Shown: positions 10,196-63,328 of the stretch, in pieces
How positions within the stretch are numbered: the first letter of the stretch is position 1
How the letters are laid out: every line of letters begins with the position of its first letter
Position numbers and translations under genes: made by a program
Notes under the pieces: model-generated
Databases searched by the model: none
Told to the model about the DNA's origin: nothing
Seen by the model: the letters and a program-made list of their open reading frames with translations, nothing else
Sequence record: MN850605.1
Direction: 5' to 3' (one strand)
From: Escherichia phage fjerdesal
Length of the DNA: 64,000 bases

Positions 10196-10339
10196 ACGTC
10201 AGAGACATACTGTATAAGCCTTCTTATAAAGTATAACTCTGTAAAAAAGCCCTGTCTAAAAATACTCTTCGGTAGCGAAAGGAAGAATACTTATAGCAGG
10301 GCATTATTATTATTTTAATTGAGAGAGAGTAAAATAACT

Positions 10340-10415
10340 TGGAGAATCCGAAGGGACTCGAACCCTTATAAACCTGTTTTGCAGACAGGCACATATCCAT
10401 TTCTGTCACGGATTC
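10340..10415 (-). tRNA. tRNA-Cys (anticodon GCA)
   Basis: Perfect 7-bp acceptor stem, T-arm AAGGG/TTCGAGT/CCCTT, anticodon loop CTGCAAA, U73, encoded CCA. Confidence 0.75.
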
Positions 10416-10419
10416 AAAT

Positions 10420-10512
10420 TGGAGGAAGATACCAGACTTGAACTGGTACACCGATTTCTCAGCTACTGGCAGTTTAGCAAACTGCTCCCTTACCTTTTAG
10501 GGTTAATCTTCC
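10420..10512 (-). tRNA. tRNA-Ser (anticodon GCT), type II
   Basis: Acceptor GGAAGAT/ATCTTCC, anticodon stem GCAGT/ACTGC loop TTGCTAA, long variable arm, T-arm ACCAG/TTCAAGT/CTGGT. Confidence 0.7.
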
Positions 10513-10513
10513 A

Positions 10514-11248
10514 TTATTTCTGTAATGCGCTCTTCATTTCTGGTGTTGCAATAGTGTCAATCACACCAGTTTTACAAGCATCGTCAAACCAGTCTGGTAA
10601 GATACCTGCTAAGAACCCATTGATATTCGTTTTAAGGTACTCTGCAATAAGGGCAGCTTCTTCTTCAATCATCTGCACAACTTCATCTGCATAAGCTGTA
10701 ATCTTTGAAATACCTTCATTAATCTTACTGACAGCTTGGTTAGCTAAATCAGAAACAGTATCAAGACCCTTATCAATAGCATCTTGTAAGTCACTTAACA
10801 CACCATTAACACTATCTAGTGTACTGTTCATCATGTCAATAGCTTTTTGACCATACTCTGTAGCAACACCCATGATACCACTGAATGGTTTACAACCAAC
10901 TTGTTCTCCTGCTGCACCCATAACATTGGAATACCCCTTTGCTACCTGCATACGTGATGAAAACTCATCAATAGATTTTTGACCGTAGTCTGTCAGAGTT
11001 TTAGTAGTTGCTGTAGTGCTTGTAAGGCTTGTTGTAAAGCTGTTTAGAAGGACTGTTGTAAGTCCAGCAGCAACAAGTTTCTCCTTCATTGTAGGGTCTG
11101 TTACAGAACTAATAGAGCTTACAAGTGATGTAGAAGCAGCTACGGTTCCACCGAGAACTGCTGCACCAGTAATAAGCGGGTTAGAGAACCCTTTACCAGT
11201 TTTTAAGAGATTAAAAATCTCCTTACCTTGTTCTGTCATCTCTTTCAT
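10514..11248 (-). CDS. hypothetical protein (Ser/Thr-rich)
   Basis: ORF 10514..11311 in track; start trimmed to ATG at 11248 because upstream part overlaps tRNA-Phe; AGGTG SD. Confidence 0.5.
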   Translation of the reverse strand: MKEMTEQGKEIFNLLKTGKGFSNPLITGAAVLGGTVAASTSLVSSISSVTDPTMKEKLVAAGLTTVLLNSFTTSLTSTTATTKTLTDYGQKSIDEFSSRMQVAKGYSNVMGAAGEQVGCKPFSGIMGVATEYGQKAIDMMNSTLDSVNGVLSDLQDAIDKGLDTVSDLANQAVSKINEGISKITAYADEVVQMIEEEAALIAEYLKTNINGFLAGILPDWFDDACKTGVIDTIATPEMKSALQK

Positions 11249-11266
11249 TAAGCACCTTTGAAATTG

Positions 11267-11343
11267 GTAGTCCAGTGGGATTTGAACCCTCTTCTCATGT
11301 TTTTCAGACACGCGCTTTAACCATATAAGCTACTTGGACTATA
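11267..11343 (-). tRNA. tRNA-Phe (anticodon GAA)
   Basis: T-loop TTCAAAT, anticodon stem CGTGT/ACATG loop CTGAAAA, D-stem GCTT/AAGC; 5' region slightly noncanonical. Confidence 0.6.
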
Positions 11344-11348
11344 AATTG

Positions 11349-11424
11349 GGGTGACCTACGGGATTTGAACCCGTATAGACCATGTTCACAGCATGGGTCA
11401 TTACCGTTTATGATAAGGCCACAT
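11349..11424 (-). tRNA. tRNA-His (anticodon GTG)
   Basis: Acceptor GTGGCCT/AGGTCAC, anticodon stem CCATG/CATGG loop CTGTGAA, C73, encoded CCA. Confidence 0.7.
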
Positions 11425-11455
11425 TTAAGGACTCTCGCAAGAATCCTTAGAAGTG

Positions 11456-11531
11456 GCAGCGGCATAAGGATTTGAACCTTAATAGGACAGCTTCAGAGGC
11501 TGCTGCATTGCCAGTTATGCTATACCGCTAA
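11456..11531 (-). tRNA. tRNA-Gln (anticodon CTG)
   Basis: D-stem GCAT/ATGC, anticodon stem GCAGC/GCTGT loop CTCTGAA, T-arm TAAGG/TTCAAAT/CCTTA, G73. Confidence 0.7.
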
Positions 11532-11536
11532 ATTTG

Positions 11537-11615
11537 GTACTCCATATCGGATTCGAACCGATACATAACACAGATTTTAAGTCTGGCCTCTCTGCCAATT
11601 GGAGTAATGGAGCAT
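11537..11615 (-). tRNA. tRNA with anticodon TAA (Leu-type anticodon, short variable arm)
   Basis: Acceptor GCTCCAT/ATGGAGT, T-arm ATCGG/TTCGAAT/CCGAT, anticodon loop CTTAAAA, A73; only 76 nt plus CCA. Confidence 0.6.
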
Positions 11616-11617
11616 TG

Positions 11618-11693
11618 GCGGGGGATGTTGGAATTGAACCAACTTCTTCGATTTCAAAGACCGAGGTTTTAACCTTGTAAACTAATCCCCTTT
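11618..11693 (-). tRNA. tRNA-Gln (anticodon TTG)
   Basis: T-arm GTTGG/TTCAATT/CCAAC, anticodon stem TCGGT/ATCGA loop CTTTGAA, G73, A1-C72 mismatch. Confidence 0.6.
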
Positions 11694-11699
11694 AAATCT

Positions 11700-12257
11700 T
11701 TACTTTCTCAGTGGATGAATAAAGAATGCCAACATAACTCTTTCCCTTGAGAATGCTCTTTCTTCTGGGACAACACTTTTTAGTTTCCATCCAATATAAA
11801 TTCTCCAGTAAAATTGTTTACCAAAGATTTTAATTGATGGGATAAAAGCGAATAATCCCCAAGCATTACTGTTCCACATTAGGAGATAACCTGTCTGATT
11901 ATCTTCGGGGTCAGAACTTACGTTGATATTACCTTTCCACTTAGTAACATCTCTTACATCTCTTCCTAATACATGGTAAGAGAAGTTATAAGCTTTGTTT
12001 CTCCAGAGCCATCCGACTCTTTGCATGTAGACACCTAGTTTACCAATCCATCTAATATTAGCCCATCTTTTAACGTGACCTTCATCACCATCAATTGGGT
12101 TGTCATATGTCTCCATCCATCTGAACCCGAAAGGTAAGTGTCCTTTCTTCTCACTGTAGAATGGAACTACAAAAGGTGCTAAGATAACTGCTAAGATTGC
12201 TGCAAATGGCTCTAACAAAGCTAAGAAAATCCATGAAGCATACTTCAAATATCTCAT
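11700..12257 (-). CDS. hypothetical membrane protein embedded in tRNA cluster
   Basis: 185-aa ORF with hydrophobic N-terminal segments. Confidence 0.55.
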   Translation of the reverse strand: MRYLKYASWIFLALLEPFAAILAVILAPFVVPFYSEKKGHLPFGFRWMETYDNPIDGDEGHVKRWANIRWIGKLGVYMQRVGWLWRNKAYNFSYHVLGRDVRDVTKWKGNINVSSDPEDNQTGYLLMWNSNAWGLFAFIPSIKIFGKQFYWRIYIGWKLKSVVPEERAFSRERVMLAFFIHPLRK

Positions 12258-12276
12258 CTAAATAGCCTCTTTAAAT

Positions 12277-12352
12277 TGGCGCAGGATAAGGGATTCGAAC
12301 CCCTATTAACAGCTTCGTAGACTGTTGCTCTATCCATTTGAACTAATCCTGC
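12277..12352 (-). tRNA. tRNA-Arg (anticodon ACG)
   Basis: Perfect acceptor GCAGGAT/ATCCTGC, anticodon stem ACAGT/GCTGT loop CTACGAA, encoded CCA. Confidence 0.75.
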
Positions 12353-12357
12353 AAAAT

Positions 12358-12435
12358 TGGTGTTCCAAGACGGATTCGAACCGTCACTAATACAAGGTTT
12401 GAGCTTGCATCCTCTGCCAATTGGGATACTGGAAC
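12358..12435 (-). tRNA. tRNA with anticodon CAA (Leu-type anticodon, short variable arm)
   Basis: Acceptor GTTCCAG/TTGGAAC, T-arm GACGG/TTCGAAT/CCGTC, anticodon stem GCAAG/CTTGT loop CTCAAAC, A73. Confidence 0.6.
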
Positions 12436-12436
12436 A

Positions 12437-12511
12437 TGGTACTCACTAAAGGACTTGAACCTTTTTCTTCATCTTGTAAGGGTGATGTTTTACCATATAA
12501 ACTAAGCGAGT
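12437..12511 (-). tRNA. tRNA-Val (anticodon TAC)
   Basis: D-stem GTTT/AAAC, T-arm AAAGG/TTCAAGT/CCTTT, anticodon loop CTTACAA, A73. Confidence 0.7.
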
Positions 12512-12518
12512 ATGAAAG

Positions 12519-12607
12519 AGGTCTGAAGTTGTGCCGCTAACTCAACTTCGTGGAATTTGTTACGGTCTTCAGTTGACTCAAAGCGGTCTTTCACTTGACC
12601 TCTGAAT
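12519..12607 (-). ncRNA. structured non-tRNA spacer element (GAGGTC...GACCTC closing stem, internal GAAGACCG motifs)
   Basis: 89-bp gap in tRNA array; terminal inverted repeat and internal hairpin, no canonical T-loop. Confidence 0.3.
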
Positions 12608-12683
12608 TGGTGCTCCCACAAGGACTCGAACCCTGATAAGTTGCTTACAAGGCAACCATAATAACCAATTATACGATAGGAGC
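12608..12683 (-). tRNA. tRNA-Thr (anticodon TGT)
   Basis: Anticodon stem GTTGC/GCAAC loop CTTGTAA, T-arm CAGGG/TTCGAGT/CCTTG, encoded CCA. Confidence 0.75.
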
Positions 12684-12690
12684 ATTAATT

Positions 12691-12765
12691 TGGAGCATCC
12701 AGAGGGAATCGAACCCTCAACCTCAGTTTGGAAGACTGTAATTTTCCCGTTTAAACTATGGATGC
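12691..12765 (-). tRNA. tRNA-Gly (anticodon TCC)
   Basis: Acceptor GCATCCA/TGGATGC, T-arm GAGGG/TTCGATT/CCCTC, loop CTTCCAA, U73. Confidence 0.75.
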
Positions 12766-12771
12766 ACTAAT

Positions 12772-12846
12772 TGGTGGAGTCACTGAGAATTGAACTCAGT
12801 TCCCAAGTTTGCAAAACTCGAATTTTAACCATATAAACTATGACCC
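12772..12846 (-). tRNA. tRNA-Ala (anticodon TGC)
   Basis: Acceptor with G3-U70 wobble (Ala identity), anticodon loop TTTGCAA, T-arm CTGAG/TTCAATT/CTCAG. Confidence 0.75.
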
Positions 12847-12854
12847 CCATTGTT

Positions 12855-12930
12855 TGGTACAGGTGGAGGGAATTGAACCCATCGTCTTACTGATTAAGAG
12901 TCAGCCGCATAACCATTTTGCTACACCTGC
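12855..12930 (-). tRNA. tRNA-Lys (anticodon CTT)
   Basis: Acceptor GCAGGTG/CACCTGT, anticodon stem GCTGA/TCAGT loop CTCTTAA, T-loop TTCAATT. Confidence 0.65.
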
Positions 12931-12937
12931 ATTAATT

Positions 12938-13014
12938 TGGTACACCTAGAGAGATTCGAACTCACACTGAGCAGATTCTAAGTCTGCTGCCTCTACCAGT
13001 TGGGCTATAGGTGC
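12938..13014 (-). tRNA. tRNA with anticodon TAG (Leu-type anticodon, short variable arm)
   Basis: Canonical D-arm GCC/AACTGGTAGA/GGC, perfect anticodon stem GCAGA/TCTGC loop CTTAGAA, T-loop TTCGAAT, A73. Confidence 0.65.
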
Positions 13015-13020
13015 ATTAAA

Positions 13021-13101
13021 TCTTTTTAGAGAACTTCTAAGAACCTGAGCAACAAGGTTCCACAACAAGCGACTAATAACCTTAGAAGCCCTCTAAAAAG
13101 A
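13021..13101. repeat. long inverted repeat (about 20-bp arms, about 40-nt loop) in tRNA cluster
   Basis: tctttttagagaacttctaag ... cttagaagccctctaaaaaga are reverse complements. Confidence 0.5.
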
Positions 13102-13268
13102 CCTAAATAGGTCTTTGCATAGTCTTGTTTAATCCGGTGACTAGAACCTTTGGAGAGCTTGATATTATCTCTTCTCCGTGACACCTACTAGGTGCTTTGA
13201 CAGTGTACGACAATACACGAGGGATAAACCGACAATGCGAACAAGCATGGACGGAGTAAATCTTATTA

Positions 13269-13358
13269 GGCGGTAAGTAAAGGAGTCGAACCCTCACCGT
13301 ATCTCTACAGTGGCAACAGTTTTCAAGACTGTTTGGCTGCCATTAGCCGCTACCTACC
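13269..13358 (-). tRNA. tRNA-Ser (anticodon TGA), type II
   Basis: Acceptor GGTAGGT/ACTTACC, anticodon stem ACAGT/ACTGT loop CTTGAAA, long variable arm, G73. Confidence 0.7.
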
Positions 13359-13371
13359 CCTAATAAGACTT

Positions 13372-13454
13372 TGGCATGGGACGGAGGAGTTGAACCCCTT
13401 TGAAACGGTTTTGGAGGCCGTTGCTCATGCCTTAGAGTCTTAACATCGTCCCAT
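13372..13454 (-). tRNA. tRNA-like gene, possibly tRNA-Trp (anticodon CCA) with atypical D-arm
   Basis: Perfect acceptor ATGGGAC/GTCCCAT, G73, encoded CCA, T-loop TTCAACT; anticodon stem AACGG/CCGTT enclosing 9-nt loop CCTCCAAAA. Confidence 0.45.
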
Positions 13455-13596
13455 ATTATAATTCGAAGCTTACCCTGTTATCTCAACACTGTCAAGCTTC
13501 TTCTCAGATTATTTACATGTTCTGGAAAACATGAGATACAGACCACCTCCCTACAGGAAGACCCGCTAAGGCCGTCTAAGTAATCTGCTAACTATT

Positions 13597-13673
13597 TGGT
13601 ACACCCTACAGGATTCGAACCTGTAACTAACGATTTAGAAGACCGTTGCTCTATCCAATTGAACTAAGGGTGC
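13597..13673 (-). tRNA. tRNA-Arg (anticodon TCT)
   Basis: D-arm GTTC/AATTGGATA/GAGC, anticodon stem ACGGT/ATCGT loop CTTCTAA, T-arm ACAGG/TTCGAAT/CCTGT. Confidence 0.75.
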
Positions 13674-13875
13674 ATTATCTTTAAAGACTCTCTTAGAAAG
13701 CCCTTAAAGATGCCCACCTTATTAATCATACCGTGGGCGAGTACGCCAAATTCTTTGATGAGGGATTGGAAGACCTCACTGGTGTTTAGCCTATCAAGCT
13801 ACTGCCAGAAAAACATTGTCGTTTGCATTTATTTTAAATTTGCAAAATAGACGCTACGCAACGAAAACTAAGGTT

Positions 13876-13904
13876 ACTATAAAGTAGTCACATCTCAATG
13901 TCAA
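13876..13904 (-). promoter_or_regulatory. sigma70-type promoter inside tRNA cluster (TTGACA-N17-TATAGT)
   Basis: Minus-strand TTGACATTGAGATGTGACTACTTTATAGT; reads toward tRNA-Arg(TCT) sub-cluster. Confidence 0.55.
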
Positions 13905-13919
13905 CAACTTTATTGAAAT

Positions 13920-13995
13920 TGGTACTGGTAGGTGGAATCGAACCACCGATGTTCCCTTATCAGGGGAGTGTTATAACCTTCTTAACTATACCAGC
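13920..13995 (-). tRNA. tRNA-Ile (anticodon GAT)
   Basis: D-arm GTTA/AGAAGGTTA/TAAC, T-arm GGTGG/TTCGATT/CCACC, loop CTGATAA. Confidence 0.7.
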
Positions 13996-13996
13996 T

Positions 13997-14073
13997 TGGA
14001 GGTTCAGATGGGAATCGAACCCACATTCATAGGGCTTATGAGACCCTTGCATTACCTTATCTGCGACTGAACC
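13997..14073 (-). tRNA. tRNA-Met (anticodon CAT)
   Basis: Acceptor GGTTCAG/CTGAACC, anticodon stem AGGGT/GCCCT loop CTCATAA. Confidence 0.7.
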
Positions 14074-14077
14074 ATAT

Positions 14078-14153
14078 TGGTAGAAGTGGAGGGATTCGAA
14101 CCCATCGCCTGTCAGATTAAAAGTCTGCCGCATCACCATTCTGCTACACTTCC
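14078..14153 (-). tRNA. tRNA-Lys (anticodon TTT)
   Basis: Acceptor GGAAGTG/CACTTCT, loop CTTTTAA, T-loop TTCGAAT. Confidence 0.65.
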
Positions 14154-14163
14154 ATTAAATTAT

Positions 14164-14297
14164 CTTTGTAGATAAGCTACCCAGACTTGCTTAAGGTCTG
14201 TAGCGATGTGCCTTTTTTGGGTTTAAATCTAGAATTTACCCATTCACCCTTTGTGGTCGCATACTCACAAGTAAGCTTAATAACTTATCTACAAAGG
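14164..14297. repeat. 13-bp perfect inverted repeat (ctttgtagataag / cttatctacaaag) separated by about 108 bp
   Basis: Exact reverse-complement arms at 14164-14176 and 14285-14297. Confidence 0.5.
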
Positions 14298-14299
14298 TA

Positions 14300-14440
14300 A
14301 TTACCAGACCGTTGTTTATCATCTTAAGTGCTACCATTACACCAACTCGACATCTGCCGAGTGAAGGAATCGAACCTTCGCCTTTTCTTTACCGGAGAAA
14401 TAGATTGTTTAAGTTTTGCTGTAAACGGCCTTCTGTAAAT
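14300..14440 (-). ncRNA. candidate Y-RNA-like element containing a circularly permuted tRNA-like module
   Basis: Minus strand order: T-arm GAAGG/TTCGATT/CCTTC (14363-14379), closed acceptor-like hairpin ACTCGGC-AGAT-GTCGAGT (14345-14362), D-arm-like GTG/TAATGGTAG/CAC (14328-14343); flanked by AGGCCGTT / AACGGTCT complementary segments; no anticodon arm. Confidence 0.35.
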
Positions 14441-14586
14441 TTGTTGAGCCAGACCAAGTTTTAAATTTTCAAAATTAAATTGGCTTGAAAATATCATACG
14501 TTCTTGCTGAATTTGGTCTTCTGCTCCTTTAAAGAATACTCGTAAGAACTCTTTAAGGGAGGGGCTAAATAGCCCTCTCAAAATTG

Positions 14587-14661
14587 GCGGCTACGATGAG
14601 ACTTGAACTCACATCATCTCCCGTGACAGGGGAGTATTTTCTCCAGTTAAACTACATAGCC
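14587..14661 (-). tRNA. tRNA-Asp (anticodon GTC)
   Basis: Acceptor GGCTATG/CGTAGCC, perfect anticodon stem CTCCC/GGGAG loop CTGTCAC, G73, encoded CCA. Confidence 0.75.
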
Positions 14662-14666
14662 TTTAT

Positions 14667-14754
14667 TGGTGTGCCGTGTAGGAGTCGAACCTACCGAGTC
14701 TCAATGACAAGGGATTTACAGTCCCCACCGCTACCATCTACGGGATAACGACAC
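14667..14754 (-). tRNA. tRNA-Tyr (anticodon GTA), type II
   Basis: T-arm GTAGG/TTCGACT/CCTAC, anticodon loop CTGTAAA, long variable arm. Confidence 0.7.
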
Positions 14755-14762
14755 ATTTAATT

Positions 14763-14839
14763 TGGCGGTTAGTCAGGGATTCGAACCCTGTGCCATTCGC
14801 TTAACAGGCGACCGCACATACCTTATGTGCTTCCTAACC
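14763..14839 (-). tRNA. tRNA-Asn (anticodon GTT)
   Basis: T-arm CAGGG/TTCGAAT/CCCTG, anticodon loop CTGTTAA, G73. Confidence 0.65.
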
Positions 14840-14917
14840 TTAATACATTGCCAGACCGTGTTTTTTCTTTTATCCGCAAAAAAGTATTTTGTTGCTGAAT
14901 ACGGTCTTCTGCAAAAT

Positions 14918-14994
14918 TGGAGGCGGGTGCAGGAGTCGAACCTGCCGATACCATGCTAATGAGACATGTGAGACGCCCTTTCTCTATACCCGCA
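14918..14994 (-). tRNA. tRNA with anticodon CAT (Met or lysidine-type Ile2)
   Basis: T-arm GCAGG/TTCGACT/CCTGC, anticodon stem CATGT/GCATG loop CTCATTA. Confidence 0.6.
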
Positions 14995-15085
14995 ATTCTT
15001 AATGACCAGACCAAATCTCTTCTTTGTCCGATTTACCTTCAGATGAATAAGATTAAGTTTGCTGTAATTGGTCTTCTGTCAAAAC

Positions 15086-15163
15086 TGGCGTTCCAGAAGG
15101 GATTTGAACCCTCAGATATCCACTTTGAAAGAGTGGTGACTATACCATTTTGTCTACTGGAAC
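15086..15163 (-). tRNA. tRNA-Glu (anticodon TTC)
   Basis: Acceptor GTTCCAG/CTGGAAC, perfect anticodon stem CCACT/AGTGG loop CTTTCAA, G73. Confidence 0.75.
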
Positions 15164-15170
15164 ATTAATT

Positions 15171-15247
15171 TGGTCTCTGTTGGAGGACTTGAACCTCCGG
15201 CCTTACCGCCCCAAACGGAACGCTCTACCAATCTGAGCTAAACAGAG
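15171..15247 (-). tRNA. tRNA-Pro (anticodon TGG)
   Basis: Perfect acceptor CTCTGTT/AACAGAG, D-arm GCTC/AGATTGGTA/GAGC, loop TTTGGGG, T-arm GGAGG/TTCAAGT/CCTCC. Confidence 0.75.
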
Positions 15248-15412: not shown

Positions 15413-16828
15413 TTACCAGATATAACGGTCAATCATTACTGCTTTGAGCATTACACTGATTGGGTCAAACTTCTCACCACCAAGCAGAGCTTTTAAAGTG
15501 GCTGGAGAGAACCCTGATACCATTGCTACACCGTTATCCTTAACAGATACTTCGCAAGTACCATTACGGTTTGCTAAGTACCAGAATACCAGTTGTGGCA
15601 TCTCATATCCAGCTTTTTTGTACTTACTCTGAATTGCTTCAAAGTTTGTACGACCGTTAGCTCCATCAACCTGATTGAACTCCATATCGGAGAAGATGAT
15701 AAGCTTACTTGGCATATCTTTCTGAGTCAAGTTGTTTCTTTTACCTGTTTCAAGAATGCGGTCAAAAGCTGCTTGTAAGTTAGTTGAGCCATATTCAACG
15801 TGTCGCATCACCTGACGATGACGGTTTCGTAAATCACCACTCAGTTCGATGAAGTGAGGGTTTGTTGAATAAACCATTAACTCATTCTTAAAGCAACCTG
15901 TATTGCGTTCTGCTACATACAAGGCAAGTGATACACCAATATCCAGAGCAGTAATGGAGCCAAAATTCACCCAAGACATTGAACTTGATACATCAGACAT
16001 ACACAAGATGTTTTCACCTTCTGCCATCCAGTTTGGTAGTGCTTTCCACTGCTCATTAGCAACATCTGCATTACCATACTTGACAGATTTAATCACATCG
16101 TATGGGTAAACAGCACCAGCGTTAATCTTAGTCTCACCTTTTGATAAGGACTCGATGTAAGCTTTGTAACGCTCTCCATCTTTACGGTTAAACAGTTTTT
16201 GGTAACGTGCAGCAGCAAGTGAAGGAATCTTACTGTAGTCAATCTTACCAAACTCATTAGCAGAGATTTTTTGCTCAACTGTATCAGATAGTGCAGACAA
16301 CAGTGTGCGGTACTCTTTCTCACTCAAGTTGGCAAACTTGCAGAAACGTTTTACAAACTGCTTATGACGTGGTTTGACTCGTGGTAACCACTTAGCCGCC
16401 AAACCTGCTGTTGCAGGGTCTAGTAATGCTGCTTCTAAATGTTTGAAGGCATCTGTCTCGAAACGAGTACCTACGAAGATTTTGAAGTCATCAAAACGAC
16501 CAAGTTCTGCAATCTTATCCATAATGCGAAGAACCTGCGTAGACTCTAAAACTTTGTCTTCAATTGCTTGAAGCAAAACAGTTCTGAAGGCTTTACGCTC
16601 ACCCATACCTTCTCGTACATCTCGCATATGAAGCAAAATACGAACTGCAACATCAACATCCTCACGCAAAGCTTTGTAGAACAGGTCTGGTAAGATTTCT
16701 ACGTTGCTACGGCTTGAACCAGCAGCTTTGTAAAAGTCTACAAGAGCAGACATTGATGAAGTATGGTTTACAGCACCATTTTCAGTTCGACCTGCATGAA
16801 GGTGCGCATGTTTAAATAATTCGCTCAT
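15413..16828 (-). CDS. vWA-domain protein, possibly Ro60/TROVE-like (Rsr-like)
   Basis: 471 aa; MIDAS motif DVSSS (CMSDVSSSMSW) and downstream beta-strand LIIFSDMEF typical of vWA; N-terminal ~280 aa helical region with loose resemblance to Ro60 motifs (LVDFYKAAGSS, YPYDVIKSVKYG); no adjacent AAA+ partner. Confidence 0.6.
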   Translation of the reverse strand: MSELFKHAHLHAGRTENGAVNHTSSMSALVDFYKAAGSSRSNVEILPDLFYKALREDVDVAVRILLHMRDVREGMGERKAFRTVLLQAIEDKVLESTQVLRIMDKIAELGRFDDFKIFVGTRFETDAFKHLEAALLDPATAGLAAKWLPRVKPRHKQFVKRFCKFANLSEKEYRTLLSALSDTVEQKISANEFGKIDYSKIPSLAAARYQKLFNRKDGERYKAYIESLSKGETKINAGAVYPYDVIKSVKYGNADVANEQWKALPNWMAEGENILCMSDVSSSMSWVNFGSITALDIGVSLALYVAERNTGCFKNELMVYSTNPHFIELSGDLRNRHRQVMRHVEYGSTNLQAAFDRILETGKRNNLTQKDMPSKLIIFSDMEFNQVDGANGRTNFEAIQSKYKKAGYEMPQLVFWYLANRNGTCEVSVKDNGVAMVSGFSPATLKALLGGEKFDPISVMLKAVMIDRYIW

Positions 16829-16909: not shown

Positions 16910-17281
16910 TTATTTTTTGAGGGTTGCAACAGCAGAGAACGTTGGTTTGTTATCTGTCTGTTGTTGACCACCATTATCAGGAGTCTTCTTAGTGTCTGCT
17001 GCAAGTGCTTTCATCTCACCTGCTGAGTGAGTAAAGATAGTTTTACCTACCTCAATCATGCTCTTGATGGTTACGTCGTCTGTGTTTAACCCGAACTCTG
17101 CAAGCTTAGCAGCGTCCCTTGTAACAATCGCCTCAAACAACTTTGCAGCAAACTCAGCAGAATTATCAATGGTCAGTTGAGCTTTTACAAGTGAGCTTTT
17201 GTTACGAGAGCCTTTTGGTCTTCCAGATGGGTTTCCAGATTGGCCTTTTTTAAACTGGCCTTTGTTTGTTCTGTTTTTCAT
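16910..17281 (-). CDS. hypothetical protein with basic Gly/Ser-rich N-terminus
   Basis: 123-aa ORF, first gene of the minus-strand block after the divergent promoter region. Confidence 0.55.
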   Translation of the reverse strand: MKNRTNKGQFKKGQSGNPSGRPKGSRNKSSLVKAQLTIDNSAEFAAKLFEAIVTRDAAKLAEFGLNTDDVTIKSMIEVGKTIFTHSAGEMKALAADTKKTPDNGGQQQTDNKPTFSAVATLKK

Positions 17282-17402
17282 TGGTATGCCTCTTATAAGA
17301 CCTCTTAAAAGGCTTTTAAGATAAAAGATAGATATCCAGAAAGATATCTGTTTAAATAGCCTTTTTAGAGGAACCTTTTAAGTTATCTTCTAAGTATTTA
17401 TA

Positions 17403-17431
17403 AGCCTACACCTTGTCAAGTACTTTGTCAA
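17403..17431 (-). promoter_or_regulatory. putative minus-strand promoter (TTGACA-N17-TAGGCT) in divergent control region
   Basis: Overlaps conserved motif CCTTGTCAAGTACTTTGTCAAC. Confidence 0.35.
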
Positions 17432-17456
17432 CAACTTTTTTAACTTGCAATAGTTC

Positions 17457-17530: not shown

Positions 17531-17692
17531 ATGAGAAAATCAAATAAACCGAAGAAAGGTAAGAATACCAATCACTGTAAGGAATCAAAAAGGGTAGAAT
17601 TAATCTACTATTCGTCCTCTGAAATTGGTCTGTACCTGTTCTTTCAAAATTACAGAAGACAAGAGGATTATCTATGTGTAGTTCCCAATTAG
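17531..17692 (+). CDS. hypothetical small basic protein
   Basis: Internal ATG of track ORF 17510..17692 with strong SD AAGGAGA 5 nt upstream. Confidence 0.45.
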   Translation: MRKSNKPKKGKNTNHCKESKRVELIYYSSSEIGLYLFFQNYRRQEDYLCVVPN

Positions 17693-21336: not shown

Positions 21337-21629
21337 TGAGTAAAGTACAGGTTGTTTTCCCTATTTGTGACTTCTCACTAGAGCGTGAACTTGACCTGTA
21401 CGAAGAAATTACTGACGAAATCATCTGGTCTGTTGTAGAAGAGGCTATCAAGAAGCTGTATGGTGGCCTCTTAAACCCATCAAGTAAAAAGCTCAACACT
21501 AAACAAGTAGCTGATACGTACACTGCATACGATGCCTACAACAAGCCTTTTGAAAATACCTGCTTTGACCTTATGGTAGGTAATAATAAAGTCAACTATT
21601 TCTTCGTCAGAGAGTTTAACGATGAGTAA
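21336..21629 (+). CDS. hypothetical protein
   Basis: 97-aa ORF. Confidence 0.5.
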   Translation: MSKVQVVFPICDFSLERELDLYEEITDEIIWSVVEEAIKKLYGGLLNPSSKKLNTKQVADTYTAYDAYNKPFENTCFDLMVGNNKVNYFFVREFNDE

Positions 21630-25149: not shown

Positions 25150-25160
25150 AATATCTTAAG

Positions 25161-25186
25161 AGCCTCCTTAATTGGGGGCTTTTTAA
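25161..25186 (+). terminator. rho-independent terminator ending the plus-strand block
   Basis: AGCCTCC-TTAATTG-GGGGCT hairpin followed by TTTTT. Confidence 0.55.
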
Positions 25187-26744
25187 TTTTTATAAAATTT
25201 TATCGGTTGTCCCAACCTCTGGGTCACCATCATATGTGAATAAAATATCTATCCTTCTTAACAACCTTCTTAATCTTACTCTCTATATAGTTATATAGTA
25301 CTATATAGTATCTTAGTAACTATCTAGTGGTCTTAATAGCCCTCTGTATAGCCCTTCTAAATAGCCATCTAAACACTCTTCTAACAAGCCTTCTAAACAA
25401 CCTATACAATCATCTTAACCATCTCTCTATATCCTCTTAGAAGCTCCTATACACCTCTTAATCTCTAGGTTAGCTATGTTACTCTCTATAGGTGTTCACT
25501 AGGTACTACTAAGCCTCTATATAGACTGTTTTAACAAACTTAACAGGAATATCTTCACAGACCTTATCTCACAAGGTCTAACACGGTACTAACAAGGTAT
25601 CTTATAAGCCTGTTATTACCTGTATTTTTAAAAGGCTGTATAGGTAATTATTCAGAATCTTAAAATTTTTATAAAATAGGGCTATCAAGTCATTTTTTAG
25701 GGTCTTTGAAGGAACTGAAAAATATCTGATTAGGATGTATATCTGCTTGGTAGCCCTTAACAGCCCCTTAACACCCCCTTTGCAAAATTTTAAAATATCC
25801 TTAACAATCTCTTAACAGTTCTCACATCTTCTTAACAACCCTTCAAAGGTCTTAACAGATTCTTAACAGAACTAACAAGGCTGTAACAGTTTTCTAACAA
25901 GTGCTGAATAGGCTTTACAGAATCTTAACAGATGACTAACAAGAGCTAACAAGTTAATTTTAAAGAGTTATTTTGTTAAGATAATTAACAAGTTCCTAAC
26001 AAGTGTTTAATCTTTTTAACAAGCTATTAACATGGTCACTATCTCTTGGTCTATAGTTCCCTTTCCCTCTTAGTGATTCTTTAAACATACCTCTTAAAAG
26101 CTCTCTATAGCTCTTTATAAGCTCTTTTAAGTCTCTTCCTAGTAGTTACACCCCAACTATACAGAAAGCTTTTTATAGGGCTTTACAGGAGCTTTTAAGG
26201 CTATGTCAAAGGCTCTTACAAGGCTTTTACATGGTCTTAACAGAGATTTAACAAGGGGCTAACAAGTCTCTAACAAGTGCCTTAAAAGCATAACTATGTA
26301 GGGATTGTTAAGAAATTGTTAAGAAAATGTTAAGGGGGCTAGCATTTACGTAACTTTTAAGCTACTTTATATCCCCTATAACATACTTTTAAGACACTAA
26401 CAAGCCCTTTTTAGATATTCACAAGATAGCTAACGAGATGATAAAGCTTACACCCTTATAAGATTCTTTTAAGGCTGTAGGAAGCTTTATAAAGAGCTTT
26501 TAAGGGTGAGTTAATGCAATCCCTTAAGTTAGGTTGATAAGGCTGTTATAGAGCTTTATAGAGCGTTTAAACGGTTGCCCTTCCCTTTCGGGTTATGGGC
26601 TTTTATTTAAGTTGATTTGATAAGAGATTATAGAGTAGACTATAGAGTTATTGCTTTTAAGGTCTGGTAAGATTCTATCGAATCAGTAGGGTAGATTCTG
26701 GAAAGGAAAGGAAAGGGATTGTATAGAGGTTATTACATAGACGT
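25187..26744. repeat. 1.6-kb ORF-free motif-dense region (CTTAACAR / CTAACAAG array; GCTTTATAAAGAGCTTTTAAGG family)
   Basis: No ORF of 60 aa or more on any strand; many short direct repeats; lies between convergent plus- and minus-strand gene blocks. Confidence 0.6.
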
Positions 26745-26790
26745 AAAAAAGCCCCTATGAGAAGGAGCTTTGCAGGTATCTGGGGCTATT
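26745..26790 (-). terminator. putative terminator for minus-strand early array
   Basis: Minus strand GCCCC...GGGGC hairpin followed by TTTTTT. Confidence 0.35.
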
Positions 26791-28075: not shown

Positions 28076-28203
28076 GCAATTTTTTAAGTTTATCTATAAA
28101 GAATCTTTTAAGTTAATCCCTTTTAGATAAACCCCCTCGAACAAATCTACCAATGTCAAGGGGCGTTGTCAATACTTTTTGAAAGTTTTTTGTAAGTTAT
28201 TGA

Positions 28204-28936: not shown

Positions 28937-29479
28937 TTAGAAAAAGCTCTTTAAATCTCTCTCTGTGATGTTTCCCGCTAGTGTATCCATGATGTCACAA
29001 AAAACCTGAATACTATCCGACTGTTGAATACTTTTAGCAAGAAGCTCCAGAGACTCATCAAGATAATTTAAATTTGGGTTATCCAATGAAGGAAGACAAA
29101 AAGGCGAAAACATCGCATTAAACTCGGTTACGTAAACCTTTTTAATCCAATTTAAATCGAAGTATTCTGTAAAACTTGCTACGCCAGACATATTATCACA
29201 AGAATAATCATCATTCAGGTCATCCTCTGGGATATCAAGTTCTAAGATAACAATATTTTGGGTTTTCATCTGGAAAGCGGCCGTAATAGTGGCATTACCT
29301 AACGCTTGCTGGATGCCTTCGGCTGTTATCTCTTCCTCATCGTCGCCATAGATTTTATTTTCTGGATACACGTAAAAATTGCCGTCCATGTCCGAACAAT
29401 TCCATGCACCTGATGGCTTGTCACCGTTATTAATCAGGTTGAGGAAATTTTCTTGAGTAGTACCGTGAAAGCATTTCAT
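28937..29479 (-). CDS. hypothetical early protein, possible ADP-ribosyltransferase fold (HGT motif)
   Basis: 180 aa; N-terminal FHGTTQENFLNLINNG resembles the H-G-[ST]...N...I...G NAD-binding motif of H-Y-E class ARTs (PARP/diphtheria-toxin/Tpt1-like), followed by GNFYVYPE; unverified. Confidence 0.5.
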   Translation of the reverse strand: MKCFHGTTQENFLNLINNGDKPSGAWNCSDMDGNFYVYPENKIYGDDEEEITAEGIQQALGNATITAAFQMKTQNIVILELDIPEDDLNDDYSCDNMSGVASFTEYFDLNWIKKVYVTEFNAMFSPFCLPSLDNPNLNYLDESLELLAKSIQQSDSIQVFCDIMDTLAGNITERDLKSFF

Positions 29480-29530
29480 TTTTGAATCTCCAGTTTAGGA
29501 TTTAGTGGTAAAGCTCTTTATCTGGGGCTT

Positions 29531-29559
29531 ACTTTATCGAACTATAAGCCCCTTGTAAA
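29531..29559 (-). promoter_or_regulatory. early promoter cassette type B (TTTACA-N17-TAAAGT) with GGGGCTTA/TAAGCCCC hairpin
   Basis: Near-identical cassette copies at about 30333, 31404 and 31751. Confidence 0.5.
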
Positions 29560-29564
29560 GTACT

Positions 29565-29768
29565 TTATTTGTTATTTTTTACTACTTTTAAAACCGCACG
29601 ATAGCCTAAGCAATAGGAATCACCGAAGAGCGACCGACCCATGAAGGAGTCCTCTGTAATATCTTTCGCCGTGACGGTTTTTTCTACGCCGTGAAAGAGA
29701 ACTACATCACCGACTTTAATATCTTTGATGTGTGTAGTTTCAATGGTTAAACCGTTAATAATAGCCAT
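29565..29768 (-). CDS. hypothetical early protein
   Basis: 67-aa ORF. Confidence 0.5.
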   Translation of the reverse strand: MAIINGLTIETTHIKDIKVGDVVLFHGVEKTVTAKDITEDSFMGRSLFGDSYCLGYRAVLKVVKNNK

Positions 29769-29875: not shown

Positions 29876-30280
29876 TTAGAGTTCTGCATAAATTGCATCA
29901 CAGATACCACGAAAATCATGATTTGTCAAATTACGTTGTAACCAAGTGGCGAAAAAGTCAGCGATTGCAAAGTTAGCGTCATACTCGACAGATAGCCACA
30001 CTTTAACAGCAAACCGAAACATTTTCAAATCAAGCTCTTTATTCATTACCTTAGATTTGCCTAACATGTCGGACATTTCATATTGTGCACCGTCTAGCGT
30101 GATACCTGCTGCAACGTCAGCCAATGAGTTTTTTACGTTTTCAACGTCTAAGATAACGCTTTGAATCTTCCCAATAATGTTGTGCAATGTTTCGTCCGGT
30201 GCTGATGACGTAATAACATTAATCCGGTTAACGGTCAAACGTGCTTTTAAGATTGATAACTCGCGATTATTAATAGCCAT
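29876..30280 (-). CDS. hypothetical early protein
   Basis: Track ORF 29876..30295 trimmed: upstream MENLK codons are part of conserved cassette; SD-positioned ATG gives MAINNRE... Confidence 0.5.
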   Translation of the reverse strand: MAINNRELSILKARLTVNRINVITSSAPDETLHNIIGKIQSVILDVENVKNSLADVAAGITLDGAQYEMSDMLGKSKVMNKELDLKMFRFAVKVWLSVEYDANFAIADFFATWLQRNLTNHDFRGICDAIYAEL

Positions 30281-30332
30281 TTTTAAGTTCTCCAATTTAG
30301 GATTTAGTGGTAAAGCTCTTTATCTGGGGCTT

Positions 30333-30361
30333 ACTTTATCGAACTATAAGCCCCTTGTAAA
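30333..30361 (-). promoter_or_regulatory. early promoter cassette type B (TTTACA-N17-TAAAGT)
   Basis: Cassette copy. Confidence 0.5.
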
Positions 30362-30366
30362 GTACT

Positions 30367-30639
30367 TTATACTAAATGCAGCTTTTTACCTTTTACTATG
30401 ATGTAACTCGATGCGCTATTGCTTTGCACATCCTGATAAATTCTGCGCAAACGGCCTTCGTAGTATACTTTCCAACTGGTTGGAATCTTTTTCCCGTATC
30501 CTGTAGCAGTTTTTTGTAGTCCTGCAAGTTGCCAATCTAAGATATGTTGTTCGGCTTGTAAATCCTCGAAGTGCATTACACCGTTCACATAGTGACGAAG
30601 GGTTACGTTTAAGGTGCGACCGTTGTTAGTAGTATACAT
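30367..30639 (-). CDS. hypothetical early protein
   Basis: 90-aa ORF. Confidence 0.5.
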   Translation of the reverse strand: MYTTNNGRTLNVTLRHYVNGVMHFEDLQAEQHILDWQLAGLQKTATGYGKKIPTSWKVYYEGRLRRIYQDVQSNSASSYIIVKGKKLHLV

Positions 30640-31059: not shown

Positions 31060-31349
31060 GGTGTTTCCTCTTTACGTGATACTTTGCCATTTACAGTTAT
31101 CTCATAAGAATCTAGTAAGTCACTTTTAGATTTTACTGGACTTTTAAAAGTATCATCATAAATATTTACTTGCAATACAGGTTTTTTATACTCCCTGCAA
31201 CTATTCCATAAACAAATCACTACACGACGGCCTTTTATTTTACCGTGCAACCATTCCATAACATCATGATTATTTCTTGATGTCTCGATAAAATCAATTT
31301 TGTTGAGTAACTTGCTTAGATTTTCACGAACTTTATTGGATAATTTCAT
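31053..31349 (-). CDS. hypothetical early protein
   Basis: 98-aa ORF. Confidence 0.5.
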   Translation of the reverse strand: MKLSNKVRENLSKLLNKIDFIETSRNNHDVMEWLHGKIKGRRVVICLWNSCREYKKPVLQVNIYDDTFKSPVKSKSDLLDSYEITVNGKVSRKEETPC

Positions 31350-31403
31350 TTTTGAGTCTCCTAGTTTAAGGGTTAATTTGATAAAGCTCTTTATCTGGGG
31401 CTT

Positions 31404-31432
31404 AAGATATCAACTTTTAAGCCCCTTGTAAA
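31404..31432 (-). promoter_or_regulatory. early promoter cassette type B variant (TTTACA-N17-TATCTT)
   Basis: Cassette copy. Confidence 0.45.
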
Positions 31433-31440
31433 GTACTTTA

Positions 31441-31698
31441 TCAGATTAAATTGCCAGTTAATGATAAGTGCATTTTGTAACCTTGTTTAGTGAATACGTT
31501 CACTTTACCGAGTGTTTTTACACCTTTAAAAAGGTTATTTGAACTGCGTTTTAAGGTTAAATGTTTATCAGCCTTCACGCCCCACCTTACATTAGATTGT
31601 TTTCCGTTGTCAACCACTTTCCCGCATAACTTTTTAGCCATAACGCGAGCGTCATCACGAGTTTTTGCAGCAATTACAACGTTTTTGATAATAGCCAT
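31441..31698 (-). CDS. hypothetical early basic protein
   Basis: Track ORF 31441..31713 trimmed to cassette-positioned ATG (MAIIKNV...). Confidence 0.5.
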   Translation of the reverse strand: MAIIKNVVIAAKTRDDARVMAKKLCGKVVDNGKQSNVRWGVKADKHLTLKRSSNNLFKGVKTLGKVNVFTKQGYKMHLSLTGNLI

Positions 31699-31750
31699 TT
31701 TTAAGTTCTCCAATTTAGGATTTAGTGGTAAAGCTCTTTATCTGGGGCTT

Positions 31751-31779
31751 ACTTTATCGAACTATAAGCCCCTTGTAAA
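31751..31779 (-). promoter_or_regulatory. early promoter cassette type B (TTTACA-N17-TAAAGT)
   Basis: Cassette copy. Confidence 0.5.
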
Positions 31780-31784
31780 GTACT

Positions 31785-32165
31785 TTATTTAATTTTGAAG
31801 ATAGTTACGTAACCATCACTACCGATTATTTGAGACACTCCAGCTTTTTCTACTTGATAGCCCATATTTTCAAGATGATAAACAGCATCATCATAACCAT
31901 ATGCGCCACCCTGATAACGTCTCTTATCGCATTTTATCAGGTTTTTACCACGTCCCGCAAGTGCATGCAAAATGGCTTTTTCACTTGAAAGAGTACCATC
32001 TAGCATTGTCGCCGTGTAATGGTTGATTTTATTCCCGTTAATATCATACTTGAAATTGAACGAGTGAACAACAATAACGTTACCTTTAAAATTCTCATCA
32101 AGTGACTTCTCCAGTACGCTACGAAAGTTGTCTTTGTTGATGAATTTAGGTGCACGATATTTCAT
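31785..32165 (-). CDS. hypothetical early protein (first gene of array)
   Basis: 126-aa ORF. Confidence 0.55.
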   Translation of the reverse strand: MKYRAPKFINKDNFRSVLEKSLDENFKGNVIVVHSFNFKYDINGNKINHYTATMLDGTLSSEKAILHALAGRGKNLIKCDKRRYQGGAYGYDDAVYHLENMGYQVEKAGVSQIIGSDGYVTIFKIK

Positions 32166-32214
32166 TTTTGAATCTCCTAGTTTAAGGACTTTAATTTTTG
32201 GGGTCCGGCATTTC

Positions 32215-32227
32215 CCCCCCCCCCCCG
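32215..32227. repeat. homopolymeric C13 (G13 on minus strand) in 5' leader hairpin position
   Basis: 13 consecutive C at 32215-32227, replacing the GGGGAGGG arm seen in other cassettes. Confidence 0.7.
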
Positions 32228-32236
32228 TTGATGCAA

Positions 32237-32265
32237 ATACTAGATAACCCCGTTCAAAGAGTCAA
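32237..32265 (-). promoter_or_regulatory. strong sigma70-type promoter (TTGACT-N17-TAGTAT) heading the early gene array
   Basis: Minus strand TTGACTCTTTGAACGGGGTTATCTAGTAT followed by CAACGGGG leader. Confidence 0.6.
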
Positions 32266-38282: not shown

Positions 38283-38312
38283 ATTTTAAGGGGCTTTGAA
38301 GCCCCTTGTCAA
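38283..38312 (-). promoter_or_regulatory. promoter with hairpin in spacer (TTGACA-N18-TAAAAT)
   Basis: Minus strand TTGACAAGGGGCTTCAAAGCCCCTTAAAAT; perfect GGGGCTT/AAGCCCC hairpin between -35 and -10. Confidence 0.45.
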
Positions 38313-38317
38313 ACACT

Positions 38318-62649: not shown

Positions 62650-63072
62650 TTATTTCTCTCTCAGTTGGTTAAGTTTCTTTCTAGAACATTTTAAGTTTTC
62701 GGATGAAGAAAAGTCAAGTGTCTTTTCAGAACGTGGATAATAGTGCCTATCCCAAGAAGTTTCAACATCGTTAATCAGTGACGCTAGATTACACAGGTCT
62801 GTACCACTTTGCAACCTCTTTTTAAGAGAATCTAGTAAAGCAACTGTGTCTTTAGCTTTACGTCTCGCTGTAGCAACATCTTTCATATGCTCAAATACAG
62901 AGCATTTTAAGTCATCTTCATAGTTTTCAGACAACTCTATTTCATGTTGTATATCAACCATTCTCCTGTGATGGTGAGCATATTCCCGCTGAGCAGCAAT
63001 GTCAAGTTCTTCCAACTTCTGCAAAGCTCTAACAAAGTCAGCTATGTCTGGGTGAACAAACATTTTCTGCAT
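62650..63072 (-). CDS. hypothetical protein
   Basis: 140-aa ORF. Confidence 0.55.
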   Translation of the reverse strand: MQKMFVHPDIADFVRALQKLEELDIAAQREYAHHHRRMVDIQHEIELSENYEDDLKCSVFEHMKDVATARRKAKDTVALLDSLKKRLQSGTDLCNLASLINDVETSWDRHYYPRSEKTLDFSSSENLKCSRKKLNQLREK

Positions 63073-63248
63073 GTAAGCCTCTTTTAAGTAACTATTAAGT
63101 TTTAATCTTTTATCTTAACGTATTCTATACGTTATACTTTAAAGCTTTTTAAAAGCTATTAAATAATCTTTTAAGAGTTTTAAAGTATCTGTATAGTTAA
63201 ACTGTTAAGTAACCTTTTAAGTAAAACCCACTTCGCAAAGATTAACAC

Positions 63249-63269: not shown

Positions 63270-63328
63270 TTGCTTTTTATAATTTTTTGCAGTAATGTAT
63301 GAGGTTAATGATTTTAGAGGGAGTAAAA

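Follow-up and report, generated by a model that had tools for sequence, protein, structure and literature searches.

The 64,000-nucleotide stretch of Escherichia phage fjerdesal analyzed here (MN850605.1, hereafter the window) contains two copies of a 25-bp motif, at 17.4 kb and 63.2 kb. The motif is probably the core of two promoters for the host RNA polymerase, P41 and P97, which carry an extra conserved −35 box, rather than a dedicated operator. The phage belongs to the Felix O1-like myoviruses (Felixounavirus). Its best matches are Tribble, VpaE1, and warpig (99-100% identity), and the window runs in the opposite orientation to the Felix O1 reference. Coordinates are positions in the window unless a relative is named.

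A shared motif with two −35 hexamers in each copy

The motif, ACACCTTGTCAAGTAC[T/A]TTGTCAAC (ACACC...CAAC), is found at 17408-17432 and 63245-63269, the two copies being identical at 24 of 25 positions. A scan of the window allowing up to three mismatches returned only these two matches, and none was seen in 100 dinucleotide-preserving shuffles. In the 28 kb of phage Tribble that cover the part of the genome outside the window, there is no copy beyond the one equivalent to the 63-kb site, and the genome therefore holds two. The motif is thus real and non-random. A first-pass annotation of the window had reported it as a 21-bp element, and both sequences that it quoted are present. However, CCTTGTCAAGTACTTTGTCAAC occupies 17411-17432 and is 22 nt long, its end having been misplaced by one position, while CCTTGTCAAGTACATTGTCAAC lies at 63248-63269, where it was the start that was off by one.

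Each copy contains two TTGTCAA units separated by 5 bp, which gives a 12-bp period, and each is located in an intergenic region from which genes diverge, as the annotation had also described. The first copy lies between 16910-17281 on the minus strand and 17531-17692 on the plus strand, which corresponds to gene 40 | gene 41 of Felix O1. The second lies between 62650-63072 (minus) and a plus-strand gene starting at 63330, corresponding to gene 96 (DNA polymerase) | gene 97. On the minus strand, along which genes 41 and 97 run, the 25-mer reads G-TTGACAA-(A/T)GTAC-TTGACAA-GGTGT. Both copies therefore display two perfect sigma-70 −35 hexamers (TTGACA), 12 bp apart and in the same orientation, and the "half-sites" TTGTCAA, rightly said to overlap −35 elements, are the reverse complements of these hexamers. 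The parts of the two putative promoters are as follows.

17408-17432, minus strand: P41 core, copy 1 of the 25-mer, G TTGACAA AGTAC TTGACAA GGTGT; the "P41" of Whichard 2010 and a "promoter" in NC_028825
17426-17431, minus strand: P41 hexamer 1, TTGACA, putative −35, preceded by TTAAAAAAGTTG, kept in all Ounavirinae lineages sampled
17414-17419, minus strand: P41 hexamer 2, TTGACA, conserved, within the spacer (about −23 to −18)
17403-17408, minus strand: P41 putative −10, TAGGCT, after a 17-nt spacer; predicted start at about 17395-17397
17436-17441, minus strand: A6 tract, UP-element-like, found at the same offset at other promoter-like sites of the window
63245-63269, minus strand: P97 core, copy 2 of the 25-mer, G TTGACAA TGTAC TTGACAA GGTGT; a "promoter" in NC_028825
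63263-63268, minus strand: P97 hexamer 1, TTGACA, putative −35, with homologous single-hexamer sites in Erwinia-type loci
63251-63256, minus strand: P97 hexamer 2, TTGACA, in the spacer, kept across genera
63239-63244, minus strand: P97 putative −10, TAATCT, 18 nt from hexamer 1, with TGT just before it (extended −10 type); predicted start at about 63231-63232
63274-63278, minus strand: A5 tract before the P97 −35; its plus-strand reading is the T-tract that opens the P96 spacer (see below)

Each copy would thus form the core of a minus-strand promoter for host sigma-70 RNA polymerase, taking in the −35 hexamer and the spacer as far as the border of the −10. In full, such a promoter would consist of an A5-6 tract resembling an UP element, 4 nt, TTGACA as the −35, a 17-18-nt spacer, and a weak −10 of the TAnnnT type (TAGGCT or TAATCT). 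The two copies would then be alike because they belong to the same promoter subtype under selection, with no dedicated regulator linking the strand-switch points.

Evidence for probable sigma-70 promoters

In the window, the pattern TTGACA-N16-18-TAnnnT has 20 minus-strand and two plus-strand matches. The intergenic ones, namely those at 17431, 15303, 15394, 16897, 13904, 29860, 28172, 58447, 38312, and 63268, have the upstream sequence AAAAA(A/G)GT(T/A)(G/C) in common. With its A-tract, this arrangement is found at 10 or more intergenic sites besides the two motif copies. The context before TTGACA is TTAAAAAAGTTG at 17431, TTAAAAAAGTTC at 15303, TTAAAAAGGGTA at 15394, TTTTAAAAGGTG at 16897, TCAATAAAGTTG at 13904, and AAAAAAAAATTG at 29860, that of P41 hexamer 1 resembling those at 15303, 13904, and 16897. 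Hexamer 1 of each copy is therefore an ordinary member of the family of host-type promoters of the phage. P41, P97, and the majority of the remaining promoter-like sites have an A5-6 tract located around −45 to −40. The proximal subsite of Escherichia coli UP elements has the consensus AAAAAARNR at −46 to −38.

Hexamer 1 matches TTGACA at six of six positions at both sites and in every relative sampled. The −10 candidates, TAGGCT at N17 and TAATCT at N18, have T1, A2, and T6 in common across lineages, with variation at positions 3-5. TAGGCT is also the −10 candidate at 47503 and at P97 of phage Arno18. At the divergent junctions, the minus-strand transcriptons open with gene 41 and gene 97, respectively, and the promoter scan gave no other minus-strand candidate in either intergenic region. 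P41 would head a transcripton comprising gene 41, a gene for a Ro-like protein, 26 tRNAs, and morphogenesis genes. P97 would head gene 97, the deoxynucleoside monophosphate (dNMP) kinase gene, and nucleotide-metabolism, rII, and early-cassette genes.

Promoters have been predicted at these places before. In Felix O1, P41 was predicted as TTGACA-N15-TATAGG at 21515-21541, and divergent promoters were assumed between genes 96 and 97, where homologous sequence was reported not to be found (Whichard 2010, PMC3185647). According to the same study, Felix O1 encodes no RNA polymerase, and the temporal regulation of its transcription is not known. In the GenBank record of vB_EcoM_AYO145A (NC_028825), both copies of the motif are annotated as sigma-70-like "promoter," on the same strand as here. 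These predictions concern the same sequences as ours, and P41 of Felix O1 likewise takes hexamer 1 as the −35. They are, however, pattern matches in which other −10 registers or odd spans were chosen, and neither points out that hexamer 2 is conserved or that P41, P97, and the promoter-like site at 28172 (P_28172) are paralogous. The promoters themselves are thus already predicted, whereas the conserved doubled −35 architecture is not previously described, which makes the novelty modest.

Several points weigh against this reading. The putative −10 hexamers match TATAAT at just three of six positions, and a stock promoter scan called neither P41 nor P97 on the minus strand. The literature that we searched offers for Felix O1-like phages computational promoter predictions only, and no 5′-end or in vitro transcription evidence, transcription-start data, or RNA-sequencing data. 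Hexamer 2 has no consistent TAnnnT −10 at 16-18 nt and hence is not simply a second promoter. Moreover, a plain sigma-70 promoter needs no conserved TTGACAAGG in its spacer, so something beyond a textbook promoter has been selected. With these points taken into account, P41 and P97 are still likely to be sigma-70 promoters, judging from their sequence and its conservation. Like the strong early promoters of virulent coliphages and E. coli promoters with UP elements, they combine TTGACA, a 17-18-nt spacer, and an upstream A-tract, and would be read by unmodified host polymerase. They differ from both in their weak −10 (TAGGCT, TAATCT) and in the conserved second −35 hexamer that lies 10-13 bp downstream, within the spacer.

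Conservation in relatives

The gene 41 and gene 97 proteins, rather than the motif, served as anchors for collecting homologous loci. The former gave 28 Ounavirinae-like viral contigs in addition to GenBank records, and the latter gave 30 contigs. Every Felixounavirus, Suspvirus, and Mooglevirus sequence, as well as the L032/L112 lineage, shows the order A-tract, TTGACA(A), 5-6 variable nt, TTGACA(A), (G)GTG, TAnnnT. This array precedes the ATG of gene 41 by about 150 nt and that of gene 97 by about 197 nt. At N17-18, the −10 candidates of these loci are TAGGCT, TAGCCT, TAAGTT, TACTCT, TAATCT, and TAGTCT. In relatives, the P41 −10 position always reads TAnnnT (TAGCCT, TAAGTT, TACTCT, TAGAAT, TAAAAT). 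At the P97 −10 position, Mooglevirus and L112 have TAGTCT, and the Hafnia phage has TAATGT. Fixed T1, A2, and T6 with free positions 3-5 is the pattern expected of a −10.

More distant relatives have one hexamer only. Erwinia-type phages have before gene 41 a lone TTGACA-N16-TAGAAT or TAAAAT, and before gene 97 (L122 and L123) a lone TTGACA-N17/18-TACATT, placed 178-179 nt before the ATG vs. 196-198 nt in the window type. The Pectobacterium phages also have a lone hexamer, in TTGACA-N18-TACCCT (Wc4-1) and TTGACA-N17-TAGGCT (Arno18). By spacing, conservation, and homology to these single-hexamer sites, hexamer 1 would therefore be the functional −35, and TAnnnT the −10, both conserved across the subfamily.

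When 22 distinct sequences from about six lineages were compared, both hexamers proved invariant, while the linker is hypervariable (AAGTAC, AAGGAC, AAGCAC, TTCCTC, AATGAC, AGCCTC, ATGCAC, ATACAC, ATGCGC, AATAAC, ATTCAC, AATCAC, AACCAC). At P97, the linkers across genera are TGCAC, TGTAC, TGCGC, TACAC, TTCAC, AGCAC, ATCAC, and ATAAC, and at P41, no sequence of the Felixouna, Susp, Moogle, L032, or Hafnia type departs from hexamer 2. The GTAC center, which gives the motif its palindromic look, is confined to some genomes, others having linkers that include AGGAC, AGCAC, TGCAC, TCCTC, and ATGAC, and we rejected it as a functional center because it is not conserved. Since the P41 and P97 linkers differ within every genome examined, gene conversion was rejected as the source of their likeness; selection is what keeps the two copies alike.

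The distant Hafnia phage SarahDanielle, whose gene 41 is 55% identical, carries tandem TTGACA at three places in a whole-genome scan. Its DNA polymerase | gene-97-like region reads TTGACA GAAC TTGACA AGAGGTT TAATGT (period 10), and its 40|41 region has the tandem with a period of 11, followed by TACTCT; the third tandem is inside a tail-fiber coding sequence. Both intergenic tandems have TAnnnT 17 nt from hexamer 1. The doubled hexamer has thus stayed with these two promoters even between distantly related phages, with an offset (10, 11, or 12 bp) that is not fixed.

The second hexamer in the spacer

The window has one further exact tandem.

28144-28172, minus strand: TTGACA ACGCCCC TTGACA TTGG TAGATT, with a 13-bp period; a paralogue of P97, including its leader GGGGGTTTATCTAAAAGG; predicted start near 28137

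This tandem is also conserved in AYO145A, and near-exact tandems are found at 43540, 58786, and 13495. Exact TTGACA is present in 3 of the 22 promoter-like spacers, compared with a mean of 0.09 in shuffled spacers (at least three in 1 of 20,000 runs) and P = 0.001 against random genomic windows. From its invariance across genomes, hexamer 2, which occupies about −24 to −18, is under purifying selection in the Felixouna/Susp/Moogle/Hafnia clade.

We rejected hexamer 2 as the −35 of a second promoter, as the partner hexamers 15-19 nt downstream are TACTTA/CACTTA at P41, AAGTGG at P97, and GGGGGT at 28172. Its most economical reader would be region 4 of sigma-70, for which it would offer a second, non-productive docking register that could raise the capture of RNA polymerase or tune the occupancy of promoters with a weak −10. 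We regard such an auxiliary or competing docking site as a serious possibility, to which the sequences point with somewhat less than even weight. Two potential docking registers for RNA polymerase within one turn are likewise found in lac P1/P2 and gal P1/P2, but the second register here is without a usable −10, would be non-productive, and comes with no identified switch factor of the CRP type. That hexamer 2 is read instead by a dedicated phage regulator is unlikely. Similarly improbable is a purpose-built element for docking of the sigma-region-4 type, serving an early phage protein or a remodeled RNA polymerase.

Of the near-exact tandems, the one at 43505-43552 on the minus strand (TTGACA ATGGTA TTGACC ATATC TACACT, 12-bp period) is inside the 3′ end of a coding sequence, 149 nt before the ATG of a gene for a 593-aa protein (41610-43391), which equals the distance of P41 from gene 41. 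It may be an internal promoter of the same design.

Alternative explanations

In the first-pass annotation, the motif was taken for an operator at which a regulator coordinates the strand-switch points. The two copies instead point the same way, toward genes 41 and 97, and the third tandem, at 28172, is not at a strand-switch point. As stated, this idea is unsupported, and it survives as a minority, albeit possible, alternative in which a regulator reads the second hexamer. A phage DNA-binding protein would then bind the TTGACAA direct repeats, or hexamer 2, and shut off or time both rightward transcriptons from an operator overlapping the promoters. Such a protein would account for the conservation of hexamer 2 and its AGG flank, as the spacer of a plain promoter requires no particular sequence, and co-regulation is suggested by ACTTAAAAGG, which P41 and P97 also share at about +10 to +24. 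A candidate exists in a 99-aa XRE/HTH_3 protein (Tribble_061), the only recognizable DNA-binding protein found, which is encoded in the DNA polymerase transcripton outside the window and whose distribution in Felixouna-, Susp-, and Mooglevirus fits the 12-bp-period form. However, the Hafnia phage keeps the tandem hexamers with no homologue of this protein detected, and the protein co-occurs only partly with the tandem form. XRE-type dimers, moreover, usually bind inverted repeats, whereas the units here are direct repeats whose sole palindromic part, AAGTACTT, is not conserved (AGGAC, AGCAC, TGCAC, and TCCTC are among the variants). Nor is the half-site spacing fixed. A single Hafnia genome has a 10-bp period at one site and an 11-bp period at the other, which misfits a rigid dimeric operator, and the period at 28172 is 13 bp. 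The repeat unit is the exact −35 consensus of RNA polymerase, found singly at many other promoters, including the homologous TTGACA-N16-18-TAnnnT sites of the Erwinia and Pectobacterium relatives. The products of the adjoining genes 40, 41, and 97 show no DNA-binding domain, and searches of those of genes 40, 41 (DUF5681), and 97 gave no informative Pfam, PHROGs, or PDB match. We therefore consider an operator overlapping the promoters rather improbable.

The remaining readings fare worse. On the plus strand, TTGTCA units, which match TTGACA at five of six positions, might serve as −35 or upstream activating sites for promoters of gene 40 and the DNA polymerase gene: the scan gives TTGTCA(17425)-N18-AATAGT with an upstream TG, Felixounavirus has TATAAT 9-10 bp past the motif (63278-63283), and the −35 of P96, the candidate DNA polymerase promoter, abuts it. 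These partners are not conserved, however, the TATAAT at 63278 being GAAACT or GAAGAT in Susp- and Mooglevirus, and a 5-bp indel shifts the plus-strand −10 candidates of one copy against those of the other. The distance from the motif to the better plus-strand candidates, P40 and P96, is inconsistent (−38 to −57, −61 to −80, or, in Hafnia, beyond −110), and the base that turns TGTCAA into TTGTCA varies (ESh20, Hafnia, L112), which leaves a plus-strand role very unlikely. A role outside transcription, as replication-origin iterons or as a packaging or recombination site at near-opposite map points, could appeal to the separation of about 45.8 kb between the copies in a genome of about 88 kb, and to the richness of both intergenic regions in short repeats of the CTTTTAAG class (29 observed vs. 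5.6 expected). It is extremely unlikely given that each site has just two repeat units, in strict orientation and at a strict distance from the downstream genes, with TAnnnT always at promoter spacing, and that distant relatives have single-hexamer promoters at homologous places. The least probable of these readings, which we give almost no weight, is a site for a host response regulator of the PhoB, OmpR, or PhoP type. On the plus strand, TTGTCAA-N5-TTGTCAA resembles the pho box CTGTCAT-N4-CTGTCAT (or CTGTCAY), but where a pho box has an 11-bp period, the three main genera show 12 bp, and the two Hafnia sites show 10 and 11 bp. Each unit departs from the pho consensus at its first and last base, single copies of the hexamer recur as −35 elements throughout the genome, and no −10 is conserved 10 bp downstream, the TATAAT at 63278 being limited to Felixounavirus and having no counterpart at the 17-kb copy. 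Like pho boxes and the lambda CII and P22 C1 sites (TTGC-N6-TTGC), the motif consists of short direct repeats about one helical turn apart over the −35 region. Unlike them, it has a period of 12 bp (10-13 overall) in place of a fixed 11 or 10, its unit is the −35 consensus itself, and its repeats, at −35 and about −21, neither flank nor replace the −35.

Other identities were also rejected. A T4 MotA-box-like reading (CTTGCTTTTT at 63269) has −10 partners that are unconserved across genera, no search for MotA or AsiA having been made. By-eye comparison with IHF (WATCAANNNNTTR), sigma-E (GGAACTT-N16-TCAAA), and sigma-32 (CTTGAAA...CCCCATNT) sites revealed key mismatches, and each match leans on the unconserved linker. 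A structured RNA is not supported, Rfam giving tRNAs only in the window and no RNA family at either site.

Surroundings of P41 and P97

Further elements accompany the two minus-strand promoters.

17372-17383, minus strand: leader box ACTTAAAAGGTT, shared with P97, covering about +13 to +24 of the transcript predicted from P41
17457-17485, plus strand: candidate promoter P40, TTGACT-N17-TACCAT, for the plus-strand genes; kept in FelixO1, ESh20, and SUSP1 (three genera)
63211-63222, minus strand: leader box ACTTAAAAGGTT, shared with P41, covering about +10 to +21 of the transcript predicted from P97; AACTTAAAAGAC in EcSzw-2
63270-63298, plus strand: candidate DNA polymerase promoter P96, TTGCTT-N17-TAATGT, with its −35 1-2 bp from the reverse complement of P97 hexamer 1

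The P41 leader box is also present in ESh20, SUSP1, and at P41 of the Hafnia phage. At the P96 −10, Suspvirus has TAATGT and Mooglevirus TAGGGT, while the Hafnia phage has TTGCAA-N17-TACTAT and phiEa21-4 TTTATT-N17-TACTAT. Across phages of the Felix, Hafnia, and Erwinia types, 2-6 bp separate the P96 −35 from the reverse complement of hexamer 1. P96 and P97 would thus form a conserved back-to-back pair with interlocking upstream regions.

The predicted 5′ ends of the P97 type (63225-63238 and 28125-28143, both minus strand, and 10228-10250 of the Hafnia contig L125) have a G-rich, U-rich start in common, GTGGGTTTT, GGGGGTTTA, and TGGGGTTTT, followed by (A/C)(C/T)TAAA(A/T)(A/G)GG, which is kept even in the Hafnia phage. 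This start could be a leader RNA element or a contact site for RNA polymerase. Downstream of P41, the second gene (15413-16828, minus strand) encodes a 471-aa protein with DUF2828 and DUF7788, called "RNA-binding protein" in RefSeq and read here as Ro60/TROVE-like, and is immediately upstream of the cluster of 26 tRNAs (10340-15247).

Type-B cassettes and other repeats

The palindrome TAAAGTACTTTA of the type-B early cassettes, which the first-pass annotation had related to the motif, has four exact copies (29556, 30358, 31429, and 31776), against 0.59 expected at up to one mismatch.

29556-29567, minus strand: palindrome TAAAGTACTTTA, overlapping the −35 of a type-B promoter, ATAAAGTAC TTTACA AGG-N14-TA(A/T)(A/C)(G/T)T; the three other copies are alike

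The relationship holds on the gene strand, where the palindrome and hexamer 2 of the motif share AAAGTACTT[G/T]ACAAGG (15 of 16 positions). What they share, however, is a −35 module and not an operator palindrome, and the rIIB promoter at 38312 carries the same TTGACAAGG module. On the gene strand, each copy reads ATAAAGTAC-TTTACA-AGGGGCTTATAGTTCGA-TAAAGT, one ending in TATCTT, and thus forms a putative TTTACA-N17-TAnnnT promoter with a hairpin in the spacer. This GC-rich hairpin (GGGGCTTA...TAAGCCCC, or GGGGCTTCAAAGCCCC) is found in the promoter spacers at 29469-29568, 30271-30370, 31342-31441, 31689-31788, and 38290-38320 (rIIB). Its stem is kept while the type-B −10 differs among copies (TAAAGT, TATCTT), and the stem-loop, interleaved with the −35 and −10 of the next gene, may be a terminator or processing site for the upstream gene. 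A type-A cassette at 32165-32237 has, at 32190-32215 on the minus strand, a run of about 13 G (C on the plus strand) in place of the hairpin of other type-A cassettes, which could be a slippage-prone tract or an assembly artifact.

The short repeats CTTTTAAG/CTTAAAAG, whose excess was mentioned above, cluster at 17282-17400, 63073-63230, and 26090-26660, with several units in 12-bp tandem pairs. A perfect 19-bp palindrome, TCTTAAAAGGCTTTTAAGA, is found at 17303-17321, just upstream of the gene 41 ribosome-binding site. These units are better candidates for palindromic (XRE-type) operators than the TTGTCAA motif. CTTNNAAG was rejected as a specific operator class, being in excess genome-wide (105 vs. 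about 20 in mononucleotide block shuffles) and only mildly concentrated in intergenic regions. At the convergent junction of the Felix gene 23 and gene 24 transcriptons, 1.6 kb (25160-26790) are without open reading frames and dense in repeats of 10-12-bp period (CTTAACA, CTAACAAG, CTTTTAAG, and CTATATAG). This region is less conserved than its flanks (80-95% identity), several GenBank assemblies begin or end inside it, and one record annotates it as "repeat_region"; it could be an origin, terminus, or packaging region.

Implications for Felix O1-like phages

Felix O1-like phages are widely used in typing and biocontrol of Salmonella and E. coli. Our analysis pins the divergent regions to specific back-to-back host-type promoters, with a phage consensus of A-tract, TTGACA(A), N16-18, and TAnnnT, and makes the double −35 at P41, P97, and P_28172 an easily mutated target for start mapping, reporter assays, and phage engineering. 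If hexamer 2 merely modulates the docking of RNA polymerase, this would be ordinary promoter biology. Should it prove to be purpose-built, the two long rightward transcriptons, one with the tRNAs and late genes and the other with nucleotide-metabolism and early genes, would be switched on or off together with the early promoter at 28172, which would provide a first handle on temporal control in phages of the Felix O1 type, which encode neither an RNA polymerase nor a recognized sigma or anti-sigma factor.

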